From the IMG/VR virus record IMGVR_UViG_3300032163_000009, positions 1 through 64,000 of that record: a DNA stretch of 64,000 nucleotides; one strand, 5' to 3'. Below the pieces are notes generated by a model. That model did not search any database, was not told the origin of the DNA, and saw nothing but the letters and a program-made list of their open reading frames with translations. The position numbers and the translations under genes were made by a program. The DNA is from a virus. This document shows, piece by piece, positions 1 to 48,023 of the stretch; position 1 is the stretch's first letter, and the number at the start of each line of letters is the position of its first letter.

Positions 1-1
1 A

Positions 2-97
2 GCCTTCACGCTTTTAGCCGGAACGCCAGTTGAAAACAGTATTCGCTTTTGTCCATTTTGCGGCGATGAAGTTTTGCAGACAGTGAGCGCAATCTAA
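2..97 (+). CDS. 3' end of small Zn-ribbon-like protein carried on attC cassette 1 (truncated by window edge)
   Basis: Frame 2 reads AFTLLAGTPVENSIRFCPFCGDEVLQTVSAI*. The stop TAA lies inside ATCTAAC, as is usual for cassettes. Similar to the 5329..5514 protein. Confidence 0.7.
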   Translation, partial: AFTLLAGTPVENSIRFCPFCGDEVLQTVSAI

Positions 98-185
98 CAC
101 CGGCTTGCACGCCGACTGTCTATCGTAGCGTCGATTATCGTAGTGGCTCGGCCATCGCCAGCGGGTGAAGCCGAGACCGTTCGAC
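92..185 (+). mobile_element. integron attC-like recombination site (cassette 1)
   Basis: Inverse core ATCTAAC 92-98; arms CGGCTT-G-CAC-G-CCG-A-CTG / CAG-CGG-GTG-AAGCCG with extrahelical bases; G|TTCGAC at 179-185. Confidence 0.8.
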
Positions 186-884
186 CCGAATACCTACGGT
201 GGGTTGGTGCAATTCATCCGCGACGATGAATTGATGCTGCCCCTGAATCGGCCAGGCTACAAGGCGTGGAAAGAAGAGATCAACGCCAAGATCGATCGCG
301 GCTCGCGGGTGGTGATCTGTCCGTCGTATGTTCGATATGACAGCAAGATCGAAGAGCAGACGGTCGTGTATCACCGCGAGCATTGTTACCCGCCGCGCCC
401 GCGCAATGGCGTCTACACGGTGCAGCGCGTGTTGGAGAAGTCCGATTATCATTCGCGCCGCTTTGTGATCTATCACAATCCACAAGACGAAGTTTACGGC
501 AATTGGTATCAGGACTCGCATACTCGCAAGCGCTCGATCGGCTATTACGTCTACGAACGCGACTGGTGGGTGTTGAACTACGATCGCATTTCGATCGACG
601 ATCTGGACTATTACATCGGATCACGCTTTGAGCGTGACGAATATCTCGACATTCTGCCACTGCTCTATACGCTGCGGCAGCATCGCTTGCAAGAAATCGA
701 ATGGGAAAAGAACTTCGTAAAATTGATCGGCAGCCGTCTGGCTTGCGACGAGGCGATCGTCTGGAAGGCGGTCAACTGGTGGAAGTTCAAAACATTAGTC
801 AAGCGGCCAGTGACTTCCGATGAGCCGAAGGCGCTGCGCATGATCGAACAGAAAATCAAACAGATCCAAAAGAGAGGTGAATAA
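165..884 (+). CDS. hypothetical phage protein, probably the C-terminal part of a gene split by cassette 1
   Basis: The GTG start lies inside attC with no RBS. Coding-like sequence begins at the crossover (FDPNTYGGLVQFIRDDELMLP). Confidence 0.6.
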   Translation: MKPRPFDPNTYGGLVQFIRDDELMLPLNRPGYKAWKEEINAKIDRGSRVVICPSYVRYDSKIEEQTVVYHREHCYPPRPRNGVYTVQRVLEKSDYHSRRFVIYHNPQDEVYGNWYQDSHTRKRSIGYYVYERDWWVLNYDRISIDDLDYYIGSRFERDEYLDILPLLYTLRQHRLQEIEWEKNFVKLIGSRLACDEAIVWKAVNWWKFKTLVKRPVTSDEPKALRMIEQKIKQIQKRGE

Positions 885-886
885 GA

Positions 887-1210
887 ATGTTGAGCAATGA
901 CTTGATGATGTTAGGCTTTACCGGCTTGATGCTGCTGGCCGCGTTCATGGGCATCTTGTTCGGCTGGTTTACGGCGGGTCGGTTTCATCGTTGGCGTGGC
1001 CGCAAAGTTTTGAACGAAGGTTCGGCTGATGATTTGAAGGAGCGCATTGAAATGCGGCGGGCGCTGCTCGGGCTGATTTATGAAAGAGCACACCCCGATC
1101 GAATACCGGCGAACAGTTTAATTCCACACTTGCACGACAGCACGCTGCGCCAATCGCTGCGGGCGATTCTCGATGAAGTGTGGCAAGACGAAATTCAATC
1201 GGAGGATTGA
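887..1210 (+). CDS. hypothetical protein with N-terminal TM helix
   Basis: GAGG RBS, hydrophobic N-terminus, operon spacing. Confidence 0.7.
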   Translation: MLSNDLMMLGFTGLMLLAAFMGILFGWFTAGRFHRWRGRKVLNEGSADDLKERIEMRRALLGLIYERAHPDRIPANSLIPHLHDSTLRQSLRAILDEVWQDEIQSED

Positions 1211-1212
1211 AC

Positions 1213-1737
1213 ATGATGCAAAGACCCCTATGCTTAAAATGCAATGTGGAAATGAAGCCAAAGAAAAACGGCGTGATGGTGGCGGAAACGGCCGGAGATT
1301 CATTGGCTGGCACGCTTCACTTCTATTGTTTGACGGCTGCCGACTTGCTGGAATGTCCGGTGTGCGGTTATGAGATCGTCGCCAATTATGCATCTCGACC
1401 GGCCTATCACGACGTCGGCGATCGAGCGCTGGAAGGCGTTGTCCGAAATTTACTCGATCACGATGTTCCGATCTATCTGTGCCATGAAATCAAAACGGCC
1501 CGCTTGATCGGGCTTGACTGGCCGGACTCGTTGCTGCCGTTGAAGGTGTGCAACAGATCGTATGACTGTCGCGCAGAAAAAGAAGGGCCGACAAATGCGC
1601 ACGGTTCACTGGACGAGACGCTGACACATCATCGCTATCACTGCCCGCGCTGCGACGTGCATCTCACCTCGTTGTTGTTGTGCTCCGGCTGCGGCACGCG
1701 CTATCGAATCGCTAAGCCGGTCGAGGAGCAAAGATGA
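1213..1737 (+). CDS. multi-CxxC zinc-finger hypothetical protein
   Basis: GGAGG RBS; CLKC, CPVC, CPRC and CSGC motifs. Confidence 0.7.
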   Translation: MMQRPLCLKCNVEMKPKKNGVMVAETAGDSLAGTLHFYCLTAADLLECPVCGYEIVANYASRPAYHDVGDRALEGVVRNLLDHDVPIYLCHEIKTARLIGLDWPDSLLPLKVCNRSYDCRAEKEGPTNAHGSLDETLTHHRYHCPRCDVHLTSLLLCSGCGTRYRIAKPVEEQR

Positions 1738-2123
1738 GCGGCGATCGACCGTATGCCCCGCTAAAAGTGCGTGACGCAATTGAGCAACGCGACAGCAAGA
1801 GGCCGTATCAGCCGATCGATCGAGACACCCAACAAAAAGTAGTGACGGCCTTTCATGTGCCGCTGCCGGGCAATCGCGGACCGAAAGGCTATTGCACCGA
1901 TAAGCAGCGCTATGATATTACGGCTTTCTTATGCGGTGGCAATGGGAGCAGCAAAAACATAAGTGAGGCGCAAGGTGTGGCGTTGATTGAGTGGTTAGCC
2001 AAGCCGGAGTTGGCCGCGCTGGAAATGTTAGCCATTCTCGACTTTGTGCAGACTGTCGCCAGTGCAGGCGCGTGGCCGACTGAGCCGCCGTTGCCGTTGG
2101 GAGCAGACGATGATCTATCTTAA
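1734..2123 (+). CDS. hypothetical protein
   Basis: ATGA overlap, GAGGAG RBS. Confidence 0.7.
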   Translation: MSGDRPYAPLKVRDAIEQRDSKRPYQPIDRDTQQKVVTAFHVPLPGNRGPKGYCTDKQRYDITAFLCGGNGSSKNISEAQGVALIEWLAKPELAALEMLAILDFVQTVASAGAWPTEPPLPLGADDDLS

Positions 2124-2277
2124 ATGCACTTGCCCGTTTTTAATCAGCAACGGGGTTGATGATCCACACCTGCCCGATTGTCCGCAGAGCCGCAACTATC
2201 AAGCCGCAACTCAAGCGTCAGTCGAGCAACCAACGCAATTACCTTTGTTGCAAGGAGCAGATGATGAGCAAGTCTAA
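2110..2277 (+). CDS. small hypothetical protein (CxC...HxxxC)
   Basis: GGAG RBS; fills the operon gap. Confidence 0.55.
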   Translation: MIYLKCTCPFLISNGVDDPHLPDCPQSRNYQAATQASVEQPTQLPLLQGADDEQV

Positions 2278-3202
2278 AAACAAGCCGATGCCGATTGAAC
2301 CGAAGGCTGCCGCTAAAGAGATCATCAACATCTTGGGAAGAATTTTGTCCAGCGGCCATCGCCCTAGCGAAATCTTTGACGACTGGATTGAGCAAGTGCA
2401 AGCCAGTCTCAAGCGGCTGCCGCATTTGGCTCAAGCGTCAGCGGAAGGCAAGTCGCTGCCACCTGACCCGCCCGATATACAAAAGATGTTCGAGCGAATG
2501 CACAGTAAATATACGCCAGTGTGTCACGAGACGTTTAGCAAGGCGCTGGCTCAATTAGTCATTGCAGCGGAGGCCAGTTGGGAAGACATCTTAGGCGATG
2601 TCTATATGCAGTGGGGCGCACCGTCGAACGGCCTCGGTCAATTCTTTACGCCGTGGTCAGTGGCCTCGATGATGGCGCACATGACGATGGGCGACATCGA
2701 GCAGCAAATCCATGAGCGCATCAAAGCCGCTGCAACGAAAACGATCGTCGGCCAAGCCTTACTGATGAGCAGTTTGATCATCGATACACCCGCAGACGCG
2801 CAGGAATTTTTCTTCACGCGCTTGCTGCCGGCCGTGCTTCAAGACGTGGAGCCGATTACGATCTGCGATCCAACGGTGGGCAGTGGGGTGATGTTGTTAG
2901 CCGCGGCGGAATGTGTGCCAACCTGGGCGCTGCAATTGGGCTTGGTGCAATTCTTTGGCATGGACATTGATCAGACGTGTGTCACGATGGCGAAGATCAA
3001 CGTCATGCTTCACGGCTTGAACGGCTACGGGCTGGAATGCGCCGATGCACTGACGAACCCGTTGCTGCTGGCAATGCCGATCGCTGAGGAAGTTTACGCG
3101 CCGCTGAAAGATGCGCCGGTGGAAGTGAAGCAAGAAGTTTCGCGCCAATTGCGAACCGGCCAATACCAAATGAATTTGTTCGAGACGGAGGCAAAGACCT
3201 AA
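2261..3202 (+). CDS. N-6 DNA methylase-family (HsdM-like) protein
   Basis: DILGDVYM, GQFFTP, DPTVGSGVML and GMDID motifs; no NPPY seen; C-terminal QMNLF. Confidence 0.8.
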   Translation: MMSKSKNKPMPIEPKAAAKEIINILGRILSSGHRPSEIFDDWIEQVQASLKRLPHLAQASAEGKSLPPDPPDIQKMFERMHSKYTPVCHETFSKALAQLVIAAEASWEDILGDVYMQWGAPSNGLGQFFTPWSVASMMAHMTMGDIEQQIHERIKAAATKTIVGQALLMSSLIIDTPADAQEFFFTRLLPAVLQDVEPITICDPTVGSGVMLLAAAECVPTWALQLGLVQFFGMDIDQTCVTMAKINVMLHGLNGYGLECADALTNPLLLAMPIAEEVYAPLKDAPVEVKQEVSRQLRTGQYQMNLFETEAKT

Positions 3203-3909
3203 TGGCAAGTAGTCAAATCGTCCGATATAATCGGCATGAATTTGATCTGCGCGAAACCGATCAAGTCAAGGCCCTGACCAACTCGTTGCGCACGTCGTTG
3301 AAATTTCCTGAGAAATTGGATCAGTTTATCGAATCCTCAGCGGCGGAGCGCGACCGCATGAAGTGGCAAATGGCGCGAGCGCTGGTCAAATATCTCGACG
3401 CCTTCCCGAAGAACCTGCGCTCGATCGTGCGACCATTGATCGTGGAGCACTACGCGCCGATCATGCGCAACGAAGAAACAACGGTGCGCGAAATGCTCCA
3501 CACCGCCGAGGTCATCCCGATCGGGCTGGAGCAAGACGATCGCTTGTCGATGTTAGGCTTCTCGCACTGGACACGGTTGGCCCGCGTCGGGGATGTCAAA
3601 CTTATCAAGCAGATGCTCGATCAAATTGTTCGAGAAGCCAGCGAAGCCACGCGCATTACATGCGAGTATATCGATCGCCTAAACATCTCGAACAAATTGC
3701 AAAGTGAAGGCTTCGGCAAGCCGGAGATCAACGCGCTGCTGCCGACGCTGGCACCGGCGCAGCCGTCCCACAGTCGTATTCAAGGTCAGGTCGAAGTTTA
3801 TCAAAACGGTCAAGGGCCGCGCAAAGTGATTTGGTTGCCGGTCGATGATCTACAATTTGCCGAAGGCGATCAAGTGATCGTCATTCGGCGCAAAGTGAGC
3901 GAGGAATAA
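3202..3909 (+). CDS. hypothetical protein
   Basis: TAATG overlap, 235 aa. Confidence 0.75.
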   Translation: MASSQIVRYNRHEFDLRETDQVKALTNSLRTSLKFPEKLDQFIESSAAERDRMKWQMARALVKYLDAFPKNLRSIVRPLIVEHYAPIMRNEETTVREMLHTAEVIPIGLEQDDRLSMLGFSHWTRLARVGDVKLIKQMLDQIVREASEATRITCEYIDRLNISNKLQSEGFGKPEINALLPTLAPAQPSHSRIQGQVEVYQNGQGPRKVIWLPVDDLQFAEGDQVIVIRRKVSEE

Positions 3910-3910
3910 C

Positions 3911-4171
3911 ATGGCAGAAAATAAATTGCCTTTGCAGGTGTGGTTTGACGATCACGATTGGGTCGTGGCGGAGACTGCGGCCGATGCTACCGACATCATG
4001 CACGAAGTCTACGGCAATGACAGTTCGGCGCAGCCGGAAGATTTCAGTCAGTTAAGCAGCGACGAATCTATCTCGATCTTCGACGGCGAGACAGAAGAAA
4101 CAGTCAAGCACACGGCCGCTGAATGGATTGCAAGCAATGGGCGAGGCTTACTGGCCTCGGTCGATTTCTAG
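3911..4171 (+). CDS. small acidic hypothetical protein
   Basis: GAGGA RBS, operon position. Confidence 0.7.
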   Translation: MAENKLPLQVWFDDHDWVVAETAADATDIMHEVYGNDSSAQPEDFSQLSSDESISIFDGETEETVKHTAAEWIASNGRGLLASVDF

Positions 4172-4179
4172 GCGCAGAG

Positions 4180-4869
4180 ATGAATACAGACGATCCGCAG
4201 ATCAAAGAACTACAAGAACGCGCGGCGCAGCATCGAGCGCGAGCAGCCGCACTGCGCCAGCGACGCGAGCACCGCTTCGACAATGCGCCCGGCTCATTCG
4301 TGACTGGTAGCAGCGGCCGCCGTCGATCGGGACTTGCCAAGCGCAGCGAACGCGCAATGGCCGGCGCACTGAACGACAGTCGCAAGGCGAGCTGGCACGA
4401 TGATCGAGCAGCGCATTTGGAATATCGAGTCAAGTGGCTGCTCGGCGAAGAACAACGATCAATCGATCGGCTTAAAGCGCAAGCCGATCAAAAAGCAAGC
4501 CGAGCAGCGGCTACCCGGCAACGGCGAGCGATGACTGCGCAAGAAAAATTGTTTGCCTATCACTGCGCCACAGGCTGGGCCTATGCTGATAAGAGCCGCT
4601 GGCAAGACAATGATTACACTTTGATCGCCATTCTCTTTGCCAGCGATTTGACGGTGAGTATTCACAATCCGTGCGCGCCTGACCTCATGGCTTTGATCGA
4701 GGCGGACATAGCGAAAATAAAAGCGCGAGTCGGTGAGAAGGTTGGGTATAACGGTGGCAGCACCTATTTTAGAATCGGTTACAAGTTGCCTGAATCAAAG
4801 GCACTGGACGAAGAAGAAGACCAACAATCTCGAAAGGCTGTGGAGGCATTGTATGCACAGATGGCTTGA
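4180..4869 (+). CDS. hypothetical protein
   Basis: Long ORF within the operon. Confidence 0.65.
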   Translation: MNTDDPQIKELQERAAQHRARAAALRQRREHRFDNAPGSFVTGSSGRRRSGLAKRSERAMAGALNDSRKASWHDDRAAHLEYRVKWLLGEEQRSIDRLKAQADQKASRAAATRQRRAMTAQEKLFAYHCATGWAYADKSRWQDNDYTLIAILFASDLTVSIHNPCAPDLMALIEADIAKIKARVGEKVGYNGGSTYFRIGYKLPESKALDEEEDQQSRKAVEALYAQMA

Positions 4870-5065
4870 CTGGTATGTAGCCCTGTCGGCTTTGTTCGGA
4901 GGCGGAGCAGCGGCTTTCTTTATGCTCGGCGCAATTAGCGCAGCGACTTATCCAGTCGATGCCCTATTCTGCATCTTGGCCGCGCTGGTGCTATTGCTGC
5001 TCGTTGCGATCGGCGGCATTGGGCTGATCTTGATGAGAGTGGCGGGCTTGAACAATGATCGTTAA
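4853..5065 (+). CDS. small membrane protein (2 TM)
   Basis: GGAGG RBS, two hydrophobic stretches. Confidence 0.6.
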   Translation: MHRWLDWYVALSALFGGGAAAFFMLGAISAATYPVDALFCILAALVLLLLVAIGGIGLILMRVAGLNNDR

Positions 5066-5309
5066 CCCTAGCCCGCCGTTTGCGGTTGAGCATGTGCTGC
5101 CGATCATGCGCGATGAAAAGACGCAGACGCGGCGCGTAGTTTGGCCTCAATCGAGTTACGCGTCAGCCGATTGGAAACCGAAGCACGGCCCAGTTGGCAC
5201 GCGCTGGTATCTGCGCGAAGCATTGGCGCGACACGACGGCGAGTCCGGTCGATGGATTTTGTACGCGGCCGATCACGCCTTCGCTAAAAACGACGCAGGT
5301 CAAGCGTTG

Positions 5310-5547
5310 TTAGGCGTTTGGGGGTCAAATGGAAAACACTTGTGAATGGGGTTATTTGGAAGATGACGATGTTTGGGAAACATCCTGCGATGAGATGCAC
5401 TATCTCAATAGTGGTGATCCCGAAACAAATCGGTATAAGTTCTGTCCGTATTGTGGGCAACGCCTAACAATGCGTGCAGTGGACGCTGCGCCGATTGAGG
5501 CGGATGAAGAATAAAGTTATGGCGGCTTGCGCCACTAACGCAAGCCG
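5310..5547 (+). mobile_element. integron-type gene cassette 2 (238 bp), attC at 5462-5547
   Basis: Starts TTAGGC (G|TTAGGC 5309-5315). Matching inverse core GCCTAAC 5462-5468. Arms GCGT-G-CAGTGG-A-CGC / GCG-CCACTA-ACGC. Ends AAGCCG. Confidence 0.85.
5329..5514 (+). CDS. cassette-borne small Zn-ribbon-like protein
   Basis: C..W, WETSC, GDPETNRYKFCPYCG; the C-terminus reads into attC. Confidence 0.75.
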   Translation: MENTCEWGYLEDDDVWETSCDEMHYLNSGDPETNRYKFCPYCGQRLTMRAVDAAPIEADEE

Positions 5548-6017
5548 AAATGGCGTTGGAAGAAAAGTAAACTGGCGTCGCTGTATATGCCAGCCAACTG
5601 CGCTCGAACGCGCCTGCTCGTCGTCGGGGTTCGAGTCGAACGCTTGCACGACCTCAGCGCAACGGATTGCCGCGCTGAGGGCTATAGCGCTCGAACCGAT
5701 TACTTTTCGGAATGGGACAAGATGAACGCCGATCGCGGCCACGCGGCTGAAACAAATCCAGTGGTATGTGCTTATACGTTTCTGCGAGAGCGGCCAACTT
5801 TTGTTGAGCGCTGGCGGACAGAATCAGAAGCACTAGGCATTCCGCTTTATAATCGCGCGACGATCGCCCAAATGAAAAGCGGCAAGGCGCGAGTGTTTCG
5901 GCCTGGTCATATCAACCCTGATAATTTCTTGCCGGAACCGCAAGAGTTCGACACCTACTATGCGGCCTTCGATTACTTGCAAGCCTATCTGCTGGCCGTT
6001 AAGGAGAAGATGCAGCG

Positions 6018-6485
6018 ATGAAAGTTCTATCTATTCAGCAGCCGTGGGCTTCTTTGATTATGGCCGGAGTGAAGCACGCCGAAACGCGATCGTGGTCAAC
6101 GCTGCATCGCGGGGAGTTAGGCATCCACAGCAGCGCCTCGATCGCAGGCTACATGCGCAACATTTACGAAGAAGATAGTTTGTTCTGCGCGTTGCTCAAA
6201 GATATTGGCGTGCTGAAATGGCCTGACATTTTCAAATTGCCGTTAGGCAAATTGCTTGGCACCGTCAACCTGATCAATTGCGTCTCCACGACCAGCGGCG
6301 ATCACTACTGGTCAACCGTTGAACGGGCGCTCGGAGATTTTTCGCGCGGGCGCTTCGCCTGGCTCTTTGACAAAGAGCGCACGGTGTACGCGCAACCGAT
6401 TCCGCTGCGCGGTTCACTGAGTCTGTGGACTTATAATCCGCCGACTAGCGCGACAAATGAGGTTGATCTAACGTGCCGAAATTGA
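6018..6485 (+). CDS. ASCH domain protein
   Basis: MKVLSIQQPWASLI..G.K..ETRSW.T.HRG.L.IH and PIPLRGSLSLW signature. Confidence 0.9.
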   Translation: MKVLSIQQPWASLIMAGVKHAETRSWSTLHRGELGIHSSASIAGYMRNIYEEDSLFCALLKDIGVLKWPDIFKLPLGKLLGTVNLINCVSTTSGDHYWSTVERALGDFSRGRFAWLFDKERTVYAQPIPLRGSLSLWTYNPPTSATNEVDLTCRN

Positions 6486-6958
6486 TCGCCGTTCCAATCA
6501 CACTCAGAGAAGCAAATAATTTTGTGTCTGAATACCACAGACACAATGGCCGTACAGCGCGTGACGGTGGAAAGTTTGCGATCGGCGCATCAACTGGAGC
6601 GGAATTAGTTGGAGTTGCAATAGTTGGTAACCCACTGTCTGCAACATATATGGACGGATTTACGGCAGAGGTTTTACGAGTTTGTGTTTCGCCCGCTTCA
6701 CCAAAGGGTACAAACTCGTTTTTATATTCTCGATGCTGGAAAGCATATCGAGCGATGGGCGGATTAAGATTGATCACTTATACACTCACTTCTGAAAGTG
6801 GCGCATCATTGCGCGGCGCTGGCTGGACTGTTCTGCATAAAACACAAGGACATGATGCTTGGGCGGCTAAATCTCGAATGGATGGCAAAGAGCGCCAATG
6901 GCAAAGTGTTTACGGCCAGCAAAAGATATGCTGGATTGTTGAAGAGGTGAAACCATGA
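6473..6958 (+). CDS. XF1762-family / Mom-like GNAT-fold protein
   Basis: PITLREAN.FV..HRH, VGVAIVG.P, EVLRVC, SFLY, ITYTL.SESGASLRGAGW. Confidence 0.8.
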   Translation: MPKLIAVPITLREANNFVSEYHRHNGRTARDGGKFAIGASTGAELVGVAIVGNPLSATYMDGFTAEVLRVCVSPASPKGTNSFLYSRCWKAYRAMGGLRLITYTLTSESGASLRGAGWTVLHKTQGHDAWAAKSRMDGKERQWQSVYGQQKICWIVEEVKP

Positions 6959-7074
6959 GACAAGAATCAGAGTTAGATAAATTCAAAGCCGCCCTTAAGA
7001 TCATTGTAAATGCTCCAAAGGAAAAGAAGCGCAAACCAAAGAAACCGAATAAGAAAAAGCGAGTAACGAAATGA
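6955..7074 (+). CDS. small basic ORF of the kind that follows IS1595-family transposases
   Basis: MRQESELDKFKAALKIIVNAPKEKKRKPKK; recalled resemblance only. Confidence 0.5.
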   Translation: MRQESELDKFKAALKIIVNAPKEKKRKPKKPNKKKRVTK

Positions 7075-7229
7075 AGTTCAGATTCTTTTTCGCGTGGTTC
7101 GATTTCTGGATCGGATTCTATTATGACGTTGGACATCGAACCCTGTATATAAATCCGTTACCGATGTGCGTATTTCGGTTTGAGTTCACGGGAAAAATTG
7201 ACGAATCGAAACACCGAACCGATCGCTAG
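7071..7229 (+). CDS. small hydrophobic phage protein
   Basis: MKFRFFFAWFDFWIGFYYD..RTLYINPLP; ATGA overlap. Confidence 0.6.
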   Translation: MKFRFFFAWFDFWIGFYYDVGHRTLYINPLPMCVFRFEFTGKIDESKHRTDR

Positions 7230-7232
7230 TGG

Positions 7233-7257
7233 TTTATGCGTCAAGTATATTATTGCC
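7233..7257 (-). mobile_element. solitary IS1595-family-like terminal inverted repeat
   Basis: Reverse complement is GGCAATAATATACTTGACGCATAAA; no partner end or transposase in the window. Confidence 0.5.
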
Positions 7258-7261
7258 CAAT

Positions 7262-7310
7262 AATTCGCAGACTTATCCCAGTTGTGATAAGTCTGCGAAT
7301 TTGGTATAAT
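7262..7310 (+). promoter_or_regulatory. 16-bp perfect inverted repeat followed by an extended -10 element
   Basis: AATTCGCAGACTTATC-N8-GATAAGTCTGCGAATT, then TGGTATAAT. Confidence 0.6.
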
Positions 7311-7443
7311 GCACAGCGGAGGCGCGCAAACTATGTTAGACGGTAACGATCGTCAAAGTGTTTTACCCGACTGGTAGCGCCGATCCCGCAAGGTGAATCG
7401 GCCTTTAGCAAAAACTGGTCGGTTCGCTATTATTCTTGAAATG

Positions 7444-7482
7444 AAAAGGCCGCGTTGATCATGATCAACGCGGCCTTTTTTG
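7444..7482. terminator. bidirectional intrinsic terminator where early and late units converge
   Basis: 36-bp perfect palindrome AAAAGGCCGCGTTGATCATGATCAACGCGGCCTTTT. Confidence 0.9.
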
Positions 7483-7489
7483 TTGTCTA

Positions 7490-7786
7490 TTACACTTCAA
7501 TCAACTTGCCGTCTGTTAAGAATCCGTGCCAACGATCGGGCTGGTCTTTCGCACCATGAACCAAGATCGACGGCGTGAGCGTCGGCACTTCTTTGTTGCC
7601 GTTCCACTGCCACACCGGATATTTTTTCGGCGCTAATTCTTTATCCAGATACAAGGCAGCCACCTCAAGCATTGCATCAGCGCCAAACCGGACAATAACC
7701 ATTAAGCCGTTTAGATCGGTGTTCATGAAACACCAATCGCCTTTTGCGCCATTGGTGTTTAGATCGCCCCAATCTTTTCTTAACAT
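7490..7786 (-). CDS. DUF6527-like protein
   Basis: WQWNGNKEVPTLTPSILV...WHGFLTDGKL motif; TGATG coupling to the upstream gene. Confidence 0.7.
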   Translation of the reverse strand: MLRKDWGDLNTNGAKGDWCFMNTDLNGLMVIVRFGADAMLEVAALYLDKELAPKKYPVWQWNGNKEVPTLTPSILVHGAKDQPDRWHGFLTDGKLIEV

Positions 7787-7938
7787 CAGCAACCCGCACT
7801 CGGTAGCAACGCTGCAATTATCAACAAACACACTGCCAGCAGGATCAACGTGATGCCGAAAATAATCAAGCGGCGACGGCGGCGATCGATCCCTTGATCA
7901 AAGAACGGCTGCAATTTCGGCGGCACGGGATCGGGCAT
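7786..7938 (-). CDS. 50-aa membrane peptide
   Basis: MPDPVPP...RRRRRLIIFGITLILLAVCLLIIAALLP; GGAGG RBS. Confidence 0.6.
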   Translation of the reverse strand: MPDPVPPKLQPFFDQGIDRRRRRLIIFGITLILLAVCLLIIAALLPSAGC

Positions 7939-7939
7939 G

Positions 7940-8221
7940 TCAATCCTCCGGCACAGGTGCATTGAAATCCAACTCGATCGAGCCGTTGACCGCTTTCAAC
8001 GTCATGCCGATCTCAGGATGTTCACGCAAATGCTTTTCGCGCTGCGGCCAGCGGGCCAACACATTCGCCGCTTGCTGCATATCTTTTATGAAATCGGGGT
8101 CGCGCAATTGCAAGGCGTCGCGCACGGTTTGACTCAACGGCACGACGAGCTGCGCATAGGGCTCAGGCTGTGAAGCAACGCGGGCGGAAATAAAACGCGG
8201 GTCTTCGATCGAGGCATTCAT
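7940..8221 (-). CDS. hypothetical protein
   Basis: AGGAG RBS. Confidence 0.65.
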   Translation of the reverse strand: MNASIEDPRFISARVASQPEPYAQLVVPLSQTVRDALQLRDPDFIKDMQQAANVLARWPQREKHLREHPEIGMTLKAVNGSIELDFNAPVPED

Positions 8222-8234
8222 TATTCGACTCCTG

Positions 8235-9086
8235 TCACTTGAGGGTAGGATTGCAATTTACACCGATTTCGGTCCACAGATGATCGGGGGATGAAAAAGT
8301 ATAACTCACTTTCAGATTGTCTTTCAGATGCGATAAGTCATTGTCTAGCCGCAGGGCTGATGGCAGCCAACGCCCGATCAAATCGTTCCAAGTGCCGACG
8401 TATAGGCAAGGCGGATAGGTCTTCCCCCCGTCTGCGATTGACCACTGGACTGCATCAACAAAAACCTGCTTAACTGATTCAGTCTGTGTCACATTCCTAT
8501 TTCCGTACCAAACGCTTTCGAGATAACTATTGCCGCTCGATGCACACTTGGTCAGCCTGGCCGTATAGAGAATTTCTGATGCGACGAAACGATAGGCCGA
8601 CGTGTCGCTGATGACTTCGGCTTCGCCTTGCAGAATCCTCGCCATTCTGGTTAGACAGCCATTGATCTTGAGATCATCAGGAATATCCAGCGCGGGCAAG
8701 TTGGCATTTTCAGGCGTCGGCGCCGGTAAGGCTATCGAGGCAACTTCGATCGGTGTCGCGGTAACGATCGGCGTCACCTTTATAATCGGAGCCGAATCAC
8801 TCTTTTTGATTTCGGCAACGGCGGCAGATGGCGTCACCAGCACCGCCGAATGTGCGGCGACTGGAAAGAACACAGACAGCCCAAAGATAGACACAGCAGC
8901 AATCGCCAATATCGCCACCAGAAGCGGAATGATGTTGAGGCTGATCTTTTCTTTGGCCTGCGTCGCGCTGCGATCGGTTCGAGCGCGCCACTCTGTTATC
9001 TTTCGATCGGTTTTGGCGGCACGATACGGATCGATTGAAGGATCGGCGGGTACGGCATGGGTAAGTCGATCGAGGGGTTGAAGCAT
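8235..9086 (-). CDS. membrane-anchored protein, possibly with a SleB/Hydrolase_2-like domain
   Basis: TM helix, P/T-rich linker, CLTRMARILQGEA segment. Confidence 0.5.
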   Translation of the reverse strand: MLQPLDRLTHAVPADPSIDPYRAAKTDRKITEWRARTDRSATQAKEKISLNIIPLLVAILAIAAVSIFGLSVFFPVAAHSAVLVTPSAAVAEIKKSDSAPIIKVTPIVTATPIEVASIALPAPTPENANLPALDIPDDLKINGCLTRMARILQGEAEVISDTSAYRFVASEILYTARLTKCASSGNSYLESVWYGNRNVTQTESVKQVFVDAVQWSIADGGKTYPPCLYVGTWNDLIGRWLPSALRLDNDLSHLKDNLKVSYTFSSPDHLWTEIGVNCNPTLK

Positions 9087-10739: not shown

Positions 10740-13330
10740 ACCGCCTCGATGAAACTGCGTATAGCCCGCAAAATCGCGGGCTGATTCTGCAATGCCCAGT
10801 CGTCGTCTTGCCAGCGATAGAATGCCACGCCCGCGATCGGTTGATGCGCTTGATCGATATTCCATTGATGCAGGTATTTGACGCAGTGATCAATCCAAAC
10901 CGCCCCGGTGTCTTTCGACCAGCCTAACTTCGTTGAGTTGTCCAACCGCTGCGGGTTGGCCTCGGTAATATAGACCGGCAGATGCTTGAAGCGCAGCGGC
11001 ACTTCGGCGAGTGCGGTTTCTACCGCGCGGAAGTGCAGGAACTGCCAGCGCAGCGGATCGTCGCTGAACTTGGCATCGGACGTGATCAAAGTCGGGACGT
11101 TGGCTTGCGTCTTGCTGTGCAAGAACAGCGCACCGGCTCCGCTGATGCCGGTCAATATCTTCCGCCACCAGATTCGATTATCGGCTGGACACGCGGCTGG
11201 CAGCCACGCAAACTGCGGCCCGAAATAAGGATCAAGCGGTGCGGGTCCAAAAGCAACCGCGCGGGTCAGGGCTGCCCACACTCGATTGTAGGAAGCAATA
11301 TAACTTTCGGGCGTGATCGGTTGAATGTCCGCGCCTGGCTTGCCTATATCCGAATCGAAGCCCGGCCATTCTTGCGGGTTGTTAATCTCGTTGCCGTAGA
11401 TAAACGCCGCCGCGCCGGACGCGGGGTTGGCGTTGATCGTCTTGACGATCGCTTGTTCGAAGGCCGCTAGCCGATTCGGGGGCGGCAACGTGCCTGTGCC
11501 GTCGGCATAACCGTAGCCGAGTCGAACGACAACCTTGATTCCGGCTTGGGCGAATTTTGAAAAGTCTAGCGCAACCGGTTGATCGCTCACCTGCACCAGC
11601 GCCACGCACAACCCTTTCAAGTTGTTCTGCTGCATCCAGTCGCCACCGGCTGCATCATGCACGCCAATCAACAGCGGCGCAGCGAGGGGCTGAGGCGGTG
11701 TAATCGGCACAGGCTTTTGAATCTCCATGATCGACATGGGATCGATGACATCGGCCACAGAATAACCGCTCAAGCCATGACCGAGGGCTTGGATATTCAA
11801 ATGCAAATGAACCGCAGTGGTGCCAGTCAGTCCGGCTACACCGATATGCTGGCCGCGCTTAACGACTTGCCCGACCCTCACGTTGAAACTATTGAGATGG
11901 CAGTACCATGAGCGCCAAACTCGATCGGCGACCCGATGCTCGATGATCACATGCTGACCATAGTTTAGCGCTGGCGGTGACGCAAATCTGTCTGTCGCCA
12001 AAACGACCGTGCCATCGGCCACAGCGTAAACCGGCACGCTGGCGTGTTTCACATCGTCAAAGGCATCGAAGTCCGTGCCTTCGTGTAAGTGATTGGCATA
12101 CGCGGCCGGTGCGTTGAAAGGATTGGTCACGCGCAGCGGGATCGTCTCGATCGGCGACGAGATCACAAACGGAACAGGGGCGGGCGGCGGCTGAACCGTT
12201 GAGCCAAATTCTCTGAACTCGATATTGCGCACGCCGCGCGCCCGCAGCCAAGTCTCGATGTTGTCCGTCCAGCCTGATCGCTTGTAGACCACGACCAAAC
12301 TGTCGCTGCCTACTTTGGCCGAAGTGTTAATCACCACGGCATCATCAGCGCTTTGAGAGGCGGTGCCTTTGACTTTATCGCGCAGCGCGTCAAACTCTTT
12401 GACTTCGGCCTCGGTCAATTTCTGCGGAGCGAGATAGAAGATGGAGCGATACAAAGTGGAGGCCGGACTTGGAATCGGCGCAGGCACAGGCACGGTCACG
12501 GGTTGCTTGATGATTGCGGCGGCATACGCTGGCAGAATGGCTTTCAAGTTGGATTCCGAGCCGCCTAACTGAAAGCCGCACGCGCCGATCACATCAGCGT
12601 CGAGAATCAACTGGCTGTCGTATTTAACCATGCTGTCGATCCACTGCGAGCCGTTAGACGTGCCACCTGTGCCGAAACCATTGCCCGATGAAGCCTCGCT
12701 AATGATGATCGGTAACTGTGCATCGATCGGCAGCGCAGCCTTGATTTGTCGATAGCGCAGCGCGTTGTCAAAGTCGAGGCGCGGATCAGCATCTTCCCAA
12801 TAGGCATGCAGCGACAAAATCGCCCCCAACTCTTTGGCGCGACGCAGCGAAGGCAGCAAGTAGGGCAGGACGGATATTTCCGGCGCGCCGGTCGTGAATG
12901 ATCCGTAAGCCAGTTTGAAACCGTTTTGATAGGCGATTTCAAGCGCGGTCAGCATCCACACGTTAAACCATTCGGCTTTGGCCGGAACATCCGGCACAGG
13001 TTCATTCAACGGATCAAACCAATCAGCCGGATTCAAGCGCCAGTTTTGCATGAGCGTTCGCTTGTGCGAGTCGCGTGTCTTGGTCATCCACTCAAGGCAA
13101 TTGGCAACGGGATCGCCTTCGAGAAAACCGGGCGGTGTCCGATTGAACTCATCGGTTTGATAACGATATACCCATTTAGTCGTTGGGCTGAATTGGGCAA
13201 TGTCGCCGCTGATGTCTTCATCGACGGAGTAGATGATGCCGATCGGCCTTCCGCCGTTGGCACACGCTGCCAGCCAGTCTCCGAACCCGTCGCGCTTGCC
13301 GCTTGAAATATGGACGCTGAGTTTGCTCAT
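10736..13330 (-). CDS. multidomain endolysin: GH-like barrel + M23 peptidase + GH-like barrel
   Basis: M23 motifs HEGTDF, YGQHVII, YCHL and HLH. Flanking domains have NEP/LHAY/ISEA and GNEINN/LHSK/ITEA. Confidence 0.85.
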   Translation of the reverse strand: MSKLSVHISSGKRDGFGDWLAACANGGRPIGIIYSVDEDISGDIAQFSPTTKWVYRYQTDEFNRTPPGFLEGDPVANCLEWMTKTRDSHKRTLMQNWRLNPADWFDPLNEPVPDVPAKAEWFNVWMLTALEIAYQNGFKLAYGSFTTGAPEISVLPYLLPSLRRAKELGAILSLHAYWEDADPRLDFDNALRYRQIKAALPIDAQLPIIISEASSGNGFGTGGTSNGSQWIDSMVKYDSQLILDADVIGACGFQLGGSESNLKAILPAYAAAIIKQPVTVPVPAPIPSPASTLYRSIFYLAPQKLTEAEVKEFDALRDKVKGTASQSADDAVVINTSAKVGSDSLVVVYKRSGWTDNIETWLRARGVRNIEFREFGSTVQPPPAPVPFVISSPIETIPLRVTNPFNAPAAYANHLHEGTDFDAFDDVKHASVPVYAVADGTVVLATDRFASPPALNYGQHVIIEHRVADRVWRSWYCHLNSFNVRVGQVVKRGQHIGVAGLTGTTAVHLHLNIQALGHGLSGYSVADVIDPMSIMEIQKPVPITPPQPLAAPLLIGVHDAAGGDWMQQNNLKGLCVALVQVSDQPVALDFSKFAQAGIKVVVRLGYGYADGTGTLPPPNRLAAFEQAIVKTINANPASGAAAFIYGNEINNPQEWPGFDSDIGKPGADIQPITPESYIASYNRVWAALTRAVAFGPAPLDPYFGPQFAWLPAACPADNRIWWRKILTGISGAGALFLHSKTQANVPTLITSDAKFSDDPLRWQFLHFRAVETALAEVPLRFKHLPVYITEANPQRLDNSTKLGWSKDTGAVWIDHCVKYLHQWNIDQAHQPIAGVAFYRWQDDDWALQNQPAILRAIRSFIEAV

Positions 13331-13348
13331 GGTGCTCCGGTTGCCGCT

Positions 13349-13617
13349 TTACTTTTCTTTGGTGTGTGCGGCCTTGGGTGTGACAATCTCGAAATCGACC
13401 AGCACTTCTTGATTGGCATTTTCGGTCATGAACATTGGTGTAGTGAGGCCGCCAAGGTGAATATCCCGCTATTGTTGCCAGCGGCGGCCATGCCTAATGT
13501 TTCTTTCGCGTCTTGCACCAGCGACAGATTGGCACTATAGATAAACGGATTGGTGTCTTTGTCGGCGTTGGTGTTCGGTGTGCGCGAAACAGCGGTGACT
13601 TTGAATTTTGCTTGCAT
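13349..13617 (-). pseudogene. small phage protein with an apparent 1-nt frameshift
   Basis: MQAKFKVT..NNSG continues in another frame as IHLGGLTTPMFMTENANQEVLVDFEIVTPKAAHTKEK*. Confidence 0.55.
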
Positions 13618-45021: not shown

Positions 45022-45732
45022 TCACACGCCGCGTCGATTGCCGAACAGTTCAATGTGAAAGCGCGGCGTCAAATGATAACCACGCTGCAAGATAGCCGGC
45101 AATAGTTCTTGAGCGCGTCGTTGCAAGACTTGTTGATCGATGCCTTCCAACATGATGTAGACGTGGGGCAGTGGGATGGCGTGCGCCTTGACCAGCTCAT
45201 CGACTTCAAGCAAGTCTTGTTCGTTCATCACGACAAACTTAAACCACGCGATCGGTGAACGCGCAAACCAATCAAGCGTTTCAGGATGGTAGCGCTTCTT
45301 GAGTGCATTGCCGCTATTGATCAATTTTGGGCTGACGTTGTATTGATCGGCAAAGTAAGGCGTCGGGGGTGTGACGGTGCCAGCCGTTTCGATCTGGACA
45401 CGCCACTTCAGCACGCGCAGGCGGTCGATCAATTCTCCGAGGCTGCGCCATTGCAGCATCGGCTCGCCGCCCGTCACAACGAGGGACTTGATTAACGGAT
45501 TGTGTTGCCCTCTCTCTAATATCCTCTCAAGACAGTGTTCAACCGACATAGACTTGATCTCGACGTTGGGATCAAACTTTTCCCAATTCCAAGTATACGG
45601 GGTGTCGCAAAAAACGCATTTCAAATTGCAGCCCGCCAATCGAAGGAAGTATACCGGCTCTCCGATCGACACCCCTTCGCCTTGAATCGTTTCGCCGAAC
45701 ACCTCGGAAATCGCCAGCCGCTCATTCGACAT
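45022..45732 (-). CDS. queE: 7-carboxy-7-deazaguanine synthase
   Basis: TIQGEG, FLRLAGCNLKCVFCDT, TGGEP, ETAG, VSPK, KFVV. Confidence 0.95.
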   Translation of the reverse strand: MSNERLAISEVFGETIQGEGVSIGEPVYFLRLAGCNLKCVFCDTPYTWNWEKFDPNVEIKSMSVEHCLERILERGQHNPLIKSLVVTGGEPMLQWRSLGELIDRLRVLKWRVQIETAGTVTPPTPYFADQYNVSPKLINSGNALKKRYHPETLDWFARSPIAWFKFVVMNEQDLLEVDELVKAHAIPLPHVYIMLEGIDQQVLQRRAQELLPAILQRGYHLTPRFHIELFGNRRGV

Positions 45733-46204
45733 ACTGCACCTCGCACACGGCGGAAGTCTTCGGCGTCTCTTTCACTTCAACGCTGGACACCCACACCCCT
45801 TGCCCATCTAGCAAGCGGCTGGCAACTTGCTGAAAAAAGATCGCCAGACATTCAGCAGTAGTGTCGCCTACGTTCAGCAAGGCAACATCTTCAAGCGGCA
45901 AGCTATAAGACTTTTGATTGTGTTCAAACAAAACGAAGCGATCTTCAAACTCTTCCACCAAAGCTGCTGGTAGCAGCGTCCGGTGATCGAGGTGATCGTC
46001 CAGCCAATTTTTGAACACGCCGAGATCGGTGTAGTCTTTGATCCAATTCTGGTTAGTCAATGGGCCGGAGAGCGTGAGGCTGACCAACCAGTTGTGGCCG
46101 TGCAAGCGGCCGCACTTGTGATCAGGTGGAACGGTGAATAAAATATGCGCAGCGGAGAACTCAAATACTTTGGTGATCGTTAGTTTAGTTGAAAGCGCCG
46201 GCAT
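45722..46204 (-). CDS. queD: 6-carboxy-5,6,7,8-tetrahydropterin synthase
   Basis: FSAAH, CGRLHGHNW, LDH, TTAECLA, VKET. Confidence 0.95.
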   Translation of the reverse strand: MPALSTKLTITKVFEFSAAHILFTVPPDHKCGRLHGHNWLVSLTLSGPLTNQNWIKDYTDLGVFKNWLDDHLDHRTLLPAALVEEFEDRFVLFEHNQKSYSLPLEDVALLNVGDTTAECLAIFFQQVASRLLDGQGVWVSSVEVKETPKTSAVCEVQYVE

Positions 46205-46223
46205 CAGTTACTCCTTGCGCGTC

Positions 46224-46253
46224 ATTATGCCACGAATGGGCAAGCGCTGTCAA
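46224..46253 (-). promoter_or_regulatory. sigma70 promoter of the modification operon
   Basis: TTGACA-18-CATAAT with TG extension. Confidence 0.7.
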
Positions 46254-46259
46254 TTAGCT

Positions 46260-46418
46260 AAAACAAAACGACTCGAACTTCTGCGCAGAGTTCGAATCGC
46301 TTCGTGTCATCCGTAAGATGGACGTCGCTATTATAAAATTATGCCGATCGTGCGGCCTCGTCGGCGCGAAGCCGCACACTACAAAACAGCAACTCGATCG
46401 GAGGGATCGAAGAACACG
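46260..46418 (-). ncRNA. putative ~160-nt small RNA with an anti-SD (CCUCC) loop
   Basis: TGGTATGAT upstream; three hairpins with G-U pairs in the minus sense; terminator hairpin + TTTTGTTTT. Confidence 0.55.
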
Positions 46419-46535
46419 CTGGCATCATACCACACTTTGTCAATGGCCGTCGAAGGGCAGCTCAGTCAAGACATTTAAGAGATCAGTCAACAGGCAGTCC
46501 TGTCTAAGCATTTGCACCGGCAGTGTTAGGTGGGC

Positions 46536-47037
46536 TATATCTGCTCAAAGACAAACTGAGCAGGCAAGATATTACGGCACAAATAAATACTTTGAAAGGT
46601 ACAGCGTTGGAGAACCTGGCTTTTCTCTCATAATCAATGCGCTTGTCGAATACCATAATTTCAAACTTATTGGTGGACAGCAATTGAAAGCGAATTTTGC
46701 TATCAAATAAACCAGAGTCATTCAGTAGCATGGCAAACGGTTTTTGGAGTGCATACAATCTTTGAAGTATAGGCTCTCTTAGGCTATATGGCGGATTTGA
46801 AATAATCACGTCATATCTTTTTGGCTCATACCGAAAGAAATCTTGACCTGTTTCAATGTGCGAATTGGTTACGGTGAAACCGTGTGACCTGAACACACTG
46901 ACAAATTTACTATACTCTTTATCGAAGGGACACCAGACGATTGAACCGGTTTTTACATATTTCACAAGCGGCTCAATTGCATAAGCCTTTGTGTAGCTTT
47001 CATCGTGCCTGTTGAACTTGTATTGACGTGTGGACAT
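46536..47037 (-). pseudogene. AT-rich adenine DNA methyltransferase with a frameshift near the C-terminus
   Basis: VWCPFD, GQDFF and IISNPPYS. An alternative frame gives SIYLCRNILPAQFVFEQI*. Confidence 0.75.
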
Positions 47038-47266
47038 GTATCACCTATCTGATATTCGAGTGTGGCGGGCCGATCAATTCTCGCCAATCTGGATAGTCGT
47101 TGAATTCCATTTTATTTTCCTCACGGCAGAGCAGGGGGTTTGAATTGAGCATAATCCGGTAGCGTGTGAGTATTGAACTCAATACCCGTTTAGTCTGTTG
47201 CTCGTTGGACGTAATTTTCAATATGTTCAAAAGCCATTCAAGTGAAAAACATCTCCCCTGCCCTGC

Positions 47267-47872
47267 TCAGCGGTGCTTAATTGTTACCTCGTCTTCTTCA
47301 TCCAAGAAAACTGTTCGATCGCCGAAAGGCGTGCGCTGCTCTTTCGCTTTCAGTTGTGCGACAAGGTGTGCAGGCAGAGGACGCGGCGCACGCGGCTGAA
47401 TGGGTTGCAGCCAGCCGGAGCGCTTAAGCACCAAGGCCGTGATCACAATGACCGCCCCAGCGACGACGAGCAAGGTAACAATGGGGCCGAGGACTTGCCA
47501 TGCATCGGGCTTGGCGATCTTCACAAACTCCGGCACAGCGATCGGCGCGGCCACTGGCGCAGTGATCGGCTCAGCTACAGGTGCGGCGACTGGCACAGCC
47601 ACCGGCGCGGCGACCGGCACAGCGACATGACTAAGCAACGACACAGCGACGAAGCCCAACACCAAGACAGCGATGCCGATCAAGGCGAGGCCGCCGATCG
47701 CGCTGCGGCGTTCAGCCCCCTGCCCGCTTGTGTCACGCTCTGGCACTGACGCAGTCGCCGTGGCGTGGCCGCCTTGCATGGTGTAATGCTGCGGTCGCCC
47801 GACGATACGCGCCACGATGTAAACCGCCCCGACAAAAATGATCAACGCCCAACCTTCAAGTGTGATGTGCAT
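47267..47872 (-). CDS. 3-TM membrane protein with VAAP/VAVP repeats
   Basis: Hydrophobic segments; 12-nt repeat tract at ~47535-47625. Confidence 0.7.
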   Translation of the reverse strand: MHITLEGWALIIFVGAVYIVARIVGRPQHYTMQGGHATATASVPERDTSGQGAERRSAIGGLALIGIAVLVLGFVAVSLLSHVAVPVAAPVAVPVAAPVAEPITAPVAAPIAVPEFVKIAKPDAWQVLGPIVTLLVVAGAVIVITALVLKRSGWLQPIQPRAPRPLPAHLVAQLKAKEQRTPFGDRTVFLDEEDEVTIKHR

Positions 47873-48023
47873 TTAAGCCCCCTGCTCCATTGTTACCTTT
47901 GTTTTCATTGTTTCTGCCTTTGTTCTCTCTTGTACTCGAATGTTCTGTATTGTCTCCGAGCACAGACTTTGGGCGACCACTCCCCGCGCTTGGGGCAGGG
48001 GAGTGGTCGCCGCCTTGAAAAAT

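Follow-up and report, generated by a model that had tools for sequence, protein, structure and literature searches.

We analyzed a stretch of 64,000 nucleotides (the window; positions 1 to 64,000 of IMG/VR virus record IMGVR_UViG_3300032163_000009) in which an integron gene cassette lies inside a predicted ASCH-fold gene. The full record, 77,735 bases long, belongs to a tailed phage with portal, tape measure, head protease and peptidase genes. A first-pass annotation of the window had proposed that the cassette was inserted precisely into a phage gene and that its removal would restore the reading frame. At this locus (Table 1), the 5' half of the gene carries the motifs K-T-Q-T-R-R, G..W-Y-L-R-E and Y-A-A-D, and its frame runs from ATG 5055 across the left junction to a stop at 5343-5345, 12 codons inside the cassette. 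The frame of the 3' half is closed upstream by the TAA at 5536-5538 and open from 5539 to 6021, with its earliest in-frame ATG at 5587. The cassette between them begins TTAGGC and holds a single open reading frame (ORF) of 61 aa, both as first annotated. Deleting its 238 nt fuses TTG (5307-5309) to AAA (5548-5550) in a frame of 242 codons without a stop, and the predicted restoration at TTG|AAA is thereby borne out (a vertical bar marks the crossover point).

Table 1. Features of the interrupted gene, its cassette and the second array
Feature	Position	Strand	Extent and basis
5' half of the interrupted ASCH-fold phage gene (predicted fold)	5055..5309	+	85 codons; phrog_874 match, alignment with intact homologues
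Integron gene cassette, linear integrated form (TTAGGC...ORF...attC...G)	5310..5547	+	238 bp; both ends coincide with the G|TT crossover
Cassette-borne 3' part of the R' core site, TTAGGCGTT	5310..5318	+	rebuilds GTTAGGC with G5547 when circular
Cargo ORF, 61-aa four-cysteine zinc-ribbon protein	5329..5514	+	homologues, dN/dS, phrog_10312, weak Pfam matches
attC site	5462..5547	+	match to model R1, family covariation
3' half of the interrupted ASCH-fold gene (predicted fold)	5548..6021	+	157 codons; begins K-W-R-W-K...M-P...A-R; phmmer, phrog_874
attC of the last cassette of the array (second copy of cassette b)	92..179	+	R1 13.2 bits, filters off
Five-cassette array, same attC type	L170:11390-13835 (G000 75290-77735) and window 1-179		in frame within a phage gene

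Several searches bear on the origin of the two halves. A phmmer search of 1.84 billion representative proteins with the 3' half returned 1,825 matches at E<=1e-3, and the best 150 of these were mostly proteins of 140-260 aa, matched from about residue 60-180 onward. All 14 intact homologues that we aligned were contiguous and unsplit. In this alignment the N half spans K-T-Q-T-R-R ... G..Y.R-E ... Y.A-D, and the C half opens one residue ahead of a near-invariant W-x-W-K ... M-P ... A-R ... E-G block. Against phrog_874, the N half matched profile positions 72-158 (E 5.7e-4) and the C half positions 173-219 (E 8.7e-11); the intact homologues P0008 and P0016 matched positions 64-260 as a single stretch. 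Judged by these profile matches, the flanks of the cassette are consecutive pieces of one phage family, phrog_874.

The family assignment to ASCH was carried by the homologues. Neither half matched Pfam when searched separately, and a search of the PDB by sequence profile returned nothing. Against PF04266 (cut-off 21.2 bits), the intact homologue P0019 scored 23.0 bits and P0008 scored 20.1 bits. The AlphaFold model of P0008 (pLDDT 94.7) matched ASCH structures in Foldseek with E values of 1e-5 to 7e-5 and probability 1.00 (3s9x; E. coli YqfB, 9kyf; EF3133, 1t62; PH0355, 2z0t). The ASCH fold of the window gene is therefore a prediction carried over from homologues at 30-51% identity, in agreement with the first reading of the joined ORF as ASCH-like. 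On the P0008 model the cassette falls in the loop that leads from strand 59-62 to the segment before strand 101-111. Neither half would be expected to form the fold by itself, so the gene is presumably inactive as long as the cassette is in place. Directly downstream lies a second, intact ASCH gene (6018-6485, PF04266); comparison of this gene with the homologue alignment of the split gene by hhalign was not significant.

We considered whether the ASCH gene was split long ago into two functional pieces, with the cassette landing in a spacer between them. Both halves do keep open frames, the C half has the in-frame ATG at 5587, and the few database matches that might represent such pieces are C-half-only proteins of 78-124 aa. 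However, these short matches may be fragments at contig ends, and ATG 5587 comes after the conserved W-R-W-K motif. Moreover, no spacer exists, as the last codon of one half adjoins the first of the other; the break interrupts the ASCH fold between strands; and none of the intact homologues that we aligned or scanned is divided, two of them matching phrog_874 as one stretch. We regard an old functional split as very unlikely.

The attC site and the cargo gene

The first-pass annotation had described an attC-like palindrome in which GCCTAAC complements GTTAGGC, with an unpaired spacer and extrahelical bases, and all of these parts were found. On the 5' side, the R'' box GCCTAAC (5462-5468) is followed by the spacer AAT (5469-5471), GCGT (5472-5475) and a GCA loop (5476-5478). 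The middle consists of GTGG (5479-5482), an extrahelical A (5483), a variable region (5484-5531), CCAC (5532-5535) and TA (5536-5537), and the 3' side of ACGC (5538-5541), the spacer AAGCC (5542-5546) and the crossover G (5547). GCGT pairs with ACGC, an asymmetric GC/A loop follows, GTGG pairs with CCAC and, beyond the extrahelical A5483, CGC pairs with GCG. The attC of aadA7 has its parts in the same order: R'' is followed by a spacer, there of 5 nt, by L'' with one additional base, and by an extrahelical A and a variable stem, after which come L', another spacer and R'. The R'' box is a perfect 7-bp complement of the R' box rebuilt from G5547 and TTAGGC (5310-5315), and the match extends to 10 bp. 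After integration R' reads G|AAATGG, the hybrid to be expected where the attC of a cassette meets target DNA. When the bottom strand of the circularized cassette was folded (minimum energy, DNA parameters), it formed the attC hairpin with a 10-bp R box; folding of the integrated form did not produce the R box.

To score the site against attC sites of known context, we used a covariance model (R1) built solely from 81 bacterial attC sites of Chloroflexota chromosomal arrays adjoining intI genes. With default filters and E<=10, R1 had a single match in the 64-kb window, at 5462-5554, over the full length of the model (39.3 bits, E 7e-8). Mispairs in this match were confined to R' positions, with GAAA in place of GTTA. 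With filters off over positions 1-9000, the attC match scored 39.5 bits and a weak second site appeared at 92-185. The cassette itself is present once in the virus record. The covariance-model check that had been proposed for the palindrome, made here with R1, thus came out in its favor: 5462-5547 is confirmed as a real attC site, and 5310-5547 as a complete integron gene cassette.

The same data bear on the possibility of a self-splicing intron, an intein or a translational bypass element, any of which would still allow an intact ASCH protein. Excision is precise and in frame, and the insert is strongly structured (RNA fold z -3.5), but this structure is fully accounted for by attC. A search of Rfam over 5000-6100, on both strands and at E<=10, gave only a chance miRNA match outside the insert and no intron or ribozyme family; on the insert itself no Rfam family was found at E<10. 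An intein is further contradicted by the N frame, which stops 12 codons into the insert, and bypass by the 238 nt, which far exceed known bypass gaps. We give these possibilities next to no credence.

The cargo ORF has a GGGGG run immediately 5' of its ATG, and its final ~16 codons lie within attC. Its product had weak Zn_ribbon matches in Pfam and a match to phrog_10312. Homologues fall in four further metagenome protein clusters with 87-93% identity up to ...C-G-Q-R-L-T-M-R, conservation reaching as far as the attC L'' arm, and diverge from the point where the attC variable region starts. A second copy of the cassette, preceded by a different attC, is present in another IMG/VR viral contig, L002. 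The window and L002 are unrelated up to the crossover G and, from TTAGGCGTTTGG on, ~87% identical through the ORF and into the attC L'' arm. The two cassettes share the same ORF and 5' end, TTAGGCGTTTGG.GGTCAAATG, and homology starts exactly at G|TTAGGCG. The cassette is a discrete unit that has the same ends in different contexts. Because the ratio of non-synonymous to synonymous substitution (dN/dS) against the L002 copy is 0.23, the cargo is a real gene under purifying selection. It is also related to the C-terminal domain of a zinc-ribbon protein in another cassette of the same phage, cassette b (38% identity over 39 residues, E 7e-11).

Related pieces of DNA recur in other viral contigs. 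In L002, ~45 nt at the 3' end of a 319-aa gene (4565-4613), coding for I-R-L-Y-D-A-Y-N-A-D-G-N-E-K-P, recur at 5190-5236, where they form the 3' part of the zinc-ribbon cassette's attC and directly precede a Dam methylase cassette (PF05869). The attC at L019:11736-11827 has a variable region near-identical to that of the window attC, yet stands behind a different ORF, and the cassette that follows it likewise begins TTAGGCGTT.

The attC family in Chloroflexota and in viruses

A search motif, CTAACANNGCGTGCANNGGACG, was drawn from the palindromes of the window and L002. It had exact matches in 37 IMG/VR contig stretches and in more than 120 bacterial genome stretches; 59 of 80 among the matches listed were labelled Chloroflexota, mostly Anaerolineales. 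In Chloroflexota genomes the element repeats every 600-900 bp on one strand. A TIGR02249 integron integrase (438-464 bits; curated cut-off 265) was found in four of the five genomes tested and in none of 14 control genomes. In L062 the attC sites are on the minus strand, upstream of a plus-strand intI (463 bits), and the arrangement of sites upstream of an opposite-strand intI, the classical integron layout, is common to L062, L162 and L163.

The 81 bacterial sites aligned on one structure, composed of a 7-bp R box, a spacer and GCGT/ACGC, then an asymmetric loop and a covarying box of 4 bp, and lastly a single extrahelical A and a covarying stem of 6 bp, with identical geometry throughout. 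In this alignment 91.6% of pair cells were paired and 210 changes were compensatory, an amount reached in 0 of 500 shuffles, and compensatory changes occurred at 14 of the 21 pairs. When the partners were slid by 1-3 columns as a control, pairing was only 27-39%. Covariation and sequence thus support the view that the window palindrome belongs to a genuine family of integron attC sites from Chloroflexota arrays.

The same type of site is common among viruses. R1 detected 141 attC sites at E<=1e-3 in the 37 IMG/VR loci (L003-L039), and the largest arrays had 12 (L030), 11 (L026), 10 (L020) and 9 sites (L007, L016 and L038). A portal gene was present in 8 of 20 tested viral records with this attC type. 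A script for other ORF-restoring excisions in the viral loci yielded mostly false positives; the one useful result was an intI gene in L024.

Three further observations concern this family. The first is L024 (IMGVR_UViG_3300025030_000031), a complete viral record of 41,024 bp (CheckV 100%) that has direct terminal repeats and a portal gene of phrog_12. It encodes a full integron integrase at 233-1168 (TIGR02249, 370.9 bits) and has two attC sites of the same type downstream of intI on the same strand (1857-1982 and 2155-2267); from its sequence, this would seem to be an integron carried by a phage, in which intI and the cassettes point the same way. The second is the viral contig L028, with three dispersed single attC sites at 1978-2105(-), 6585-6709(+) and 13302-13424(+), one of them with the non-canonical junction G|AT; they may represent more cases of solitary insertion. 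Third, the attC type also occurs in L073 (AP021856.1, the complete genome of Candidatus Brocadia pituitae), in L054, a metagenome-assembled genome (MAG) of Nitrosotenuis, in L083, L112 and L119, and in others. These genomes bear the labels Planctomycetota, Thaumarchaeota, Deltaproteobacteria and Methylococcales, which reflects either spread of cassettes across phyla or errors in MAG binning.

Junctions, target site and route of entry

In this family the G of ...CCG is followed by TT in 88 of 99 viral and 206 of 219 bacterial sites (294/318). The right junction of the window cassette, ...AAGCCG|AAATGG, is what recombination at G|TT leaves beside its target, and both junctions of the insert lie exactly at the crossover point of the integron integrase (IntI). 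The reconstructed target reads ...GCGTTG|AAATGGCGTTGG..., in which the halves of the ASCH frame meet at a codon boundary. The flank AAATGGCGTTGG, which codes for the conserved W-R-W, is similar to TTAGGCGTTTGG of the cassette itself, a likeness that may have helped the integrase to bind.

These data make it very probable, in our judgment, that a circular cassette was inserted at a secondary site of the phage ASCH gene by the IntI of a Chloroflexota host or of a co-resident phage bearing an integron. The incoming element would have been a 238-bp circle carrying the zinc-ribbon gene and attC. The folded bottom strand of attC would recombine with an attG-like site inside the ASCH-fold gene, a single strand would be exchanged at the equivalent of the G|TT of the attC R' box, and replication would resolve the junction, leaving target-G|TTAGGC as the left and attC-G|AAATGG as the right joint. 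The outcome would be a single attC lacking integrase (SALIN) in a phage genome, with the ASCH domain cut in the loop ahead of its W-x-W-K motif and the zinc-ribbon gene in sense orientation within the phage operon. The event would have taken place while the phage DNA was in a cell expressing IntI. It was presumably recent, because both halves of the gene are still open and the attC is intact. Of the original proposal that an integron integrase inserts cassettes into phage DNA, the identity of the attC, the junctions and the single interrupted gene now stand on direct findings; the action of the enzyme is deduced from them rather than observed.

Several results weigh against this interpretation. 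The target G|AAA is non-canonical, as the annotation had remarked, and is the sole AA after the crossover G among the 318 family sites: its G and W fit the GWT consensus, and its third base is A. That consensus comes from IntI1 in E. coli and is a sequence logo rather than a strict rule (bioRxiv 10.1101/2022.09.11.507474). The window had been said to contain no intI, and we found neither intI nor any other tyrosine recombinase in the whole 77.7-kb record. Protein, IMG/VR and phage collections yielded no allele with an empty site, the nearest ASCH homologues having at most 51% identity. A word-index protein search with the C half recovered only the window's own protein, a scan of IMG/VR for the ASCH region found no relative, and blastn of this region against 50,697 phage records gave no match. 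The contigs of the sole public run with this DNA, a sediment run that may be its source sample, included one identical contig and no empty-site or circle joint, which is uninformative. The cargo gene was absent from the matches in 401 Anaerolineales genomes, a result that does not show absence, and for this reason no bacterial donor array was identified. Finally, because the loop that bears the junction varies in length among ASCH homologues, a few bases may have been lost or gained at the junction.

We also weighed entry of the cassette without IntI, either by illegitimate or microhomology recombination or by homologous exchange with a phage that already carried the interrupted gene. Short repeats are available, with GCGTT at 5304-5308, 5314-5318 and 5553-5557 and GGCGTT(T)GG common to the left end of the cassette and the right flank of the target; phage genomes are mosaic, and no integrase is present. 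However, both junctions fall on the exact IntI crossover nucleotide that is conserved in 294 of the 318 family sites, and the left boundary is identical in L002. Slippage between the GCGTTG repeats would delete 249 nt and break the frame, and exchange with an already split gene merely shifts the IntI event to an earlier time. We therefore think entry without the integrase unlikely. A transposon with GCGTTG as its target-site duplication (5304-5309 and 5553-5558) was rejected, as it needs removal of 249 nt and the resulting frame runs into a stop.

A chimera of metagenome assembly was considered as well, as cassettes are repeats and the contig itself breaks in a repeated cassette. The independent Logan assembly of the public run, however, contains an identical 4.6-kb contig that spans both junctions at a depth of 11.8. 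Moreover, the ASCH cassette is single-copy in the record, and a chimera would not restore a frame of 242 codons. Such an artifact is extremely unlikely.

Beyond insertion by IntI at this one site, we put forward, tentatively and at somewhat less than even chances, that the host integron system routinely uses phages of Chloroflexota as substrates and carriers, with IntI writing cassettes into many secondary sites of phage DNA during its replication, in arrays as well as singly within genes. If so, phages would draw on the cassettes of their hosts, methyltransferases and small zinc-ribbon proteins being the recurrent cargo, and would carry cassettes, at times intI as well, from host to host. On this view the ASCH insertion would be a snapshot of a high-flux and possibly reversible process that also inactivates phage genes.

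Published integron insertions and a second array in the same phage

Both ingredients of this finding have been published before, namely cassettes in phages and their insertion at secondary sites. At GWT sites in genomes, IntI inserts cassettes that disrupt genes and are occasionally excised precisely, and the products were named SALINs (Loot et al., bioRxiv 10.1101/2022.09.11.507474). The ASCH cassette is like them in having one cassette and one attC, no integrase nearby, insertion at the crossover G and a disrupted gene, and in being excisable in principle. It is unlike the SALINs of Loot et al. in its target, a tailed phage and not a bacterial chromosome, in its GAA instead of GWT, and in its enzyme, which would be a Chloroflexota IntI and not IntI1 or VchIntIA. 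It is a natural counterpart of the bench result on bacterial chromosomes, in which cassettes land in genes outside the integron, and extends it to a phage and to a GAA target.

CALINs and integrons in bacteriophages were reported from 10,705 isolate phage genomes, in a screen that needed at least two attC sites within 3 kb (Qi, Rajabal, Ghaly, Tetu and Gillings 2023, PMC9892861). Because of this requirement, solitary cassettes were left unscored there. Solitary attC sites are usually dropped as possible false positives, and the ASCH case is unambiguous: its attC is family-specific, its boundaries lie exactly at the crossover, the ORF is restorable and a second copy of the cassette exists elsewhere. 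Our phages resemble the published ones in carrying attC sites and cassettes with recurrent DNA methyltransferase cargo, which is seen both in the array of this phage and in L002. In contrast to that study, which covered isolate phages and reported no cassette splitting a phage ORF with a restorable frame, we describe such a case and Chloroflexota-type sites in metagenomic phages.

Chloroflexota is listed among the integron-bearing phyla (Cury et al. 2016, PMC4889954). The window site belongs to the same sequence and structure family as the attC sites of sedentary chromosomal integrons of Chloroflexota, whose arrays lie by TIGR02249 intI genes in MAGs of Anaerolineales; unlike these, it stands alone, in a viral genome, and its R' box is a hybrid. 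Classical integron insertions at secondary sites, described by Francia in 1993 and Recchia in 1994, follow the consensus GWTMW or GTT. As in those insertions, capture took place at a short degenerate site rather than at attI; the third base of the site is A, where their consensus has T. What is new here is the solitary cassette that precisely splits a phage ORF, the GAA target and the large phage-borne attC family. Because there is an array in the same phage and the 141 attC sites of the same type lie in 37 IMG/VR loci, our data suggest that the integron in Chloroflexota may be a gene-exchange channel shared by host and virus. Such a channel bears on the acquisition of anti-restriction methyltransferases by phages and on the spread of cassettes.

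The array in the same phage lies across the two ends of the record. Its cargo comprises a C-5 DNA methylase, a zinc-ribbon protein (cassette b), a probable second methylase, a 91-aa protein of unknown function and a second copy of b. R1 had three matches of 22.9-49.6 bits and a weak fourth of 8.8 bits (E 0.34) in the last 2.4 kb of the record. The array's last attC, at the start of the window, ends GAGACCG|TTC. The outer junctions, AACTTG|TTGGGC and GAGACCG|TTCGAC, are codon boundaries of one frame. L170:13716-13835 equals L170:12107-12226, and window 1-179 is near-identical to L170:12361-12540. Each end of the record thus lies within a copy of cassette b, with ~134 nt missing between the two, and because of this the record is probably a closed genome rather than 73% complete. 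Its ends meet, which puts the array 5.1 kb upstream of the cassette in the ASCH gene. The latter represents a second, separate insertion, in another gene and at a non-GTT site. Around a candidate decayed cassette near 46.5 kb, R1 with filters off found nothing above 5.5 bits in 45500-48500. The d-to-b junction of the array points to duplication or reshuffling of cassettes.

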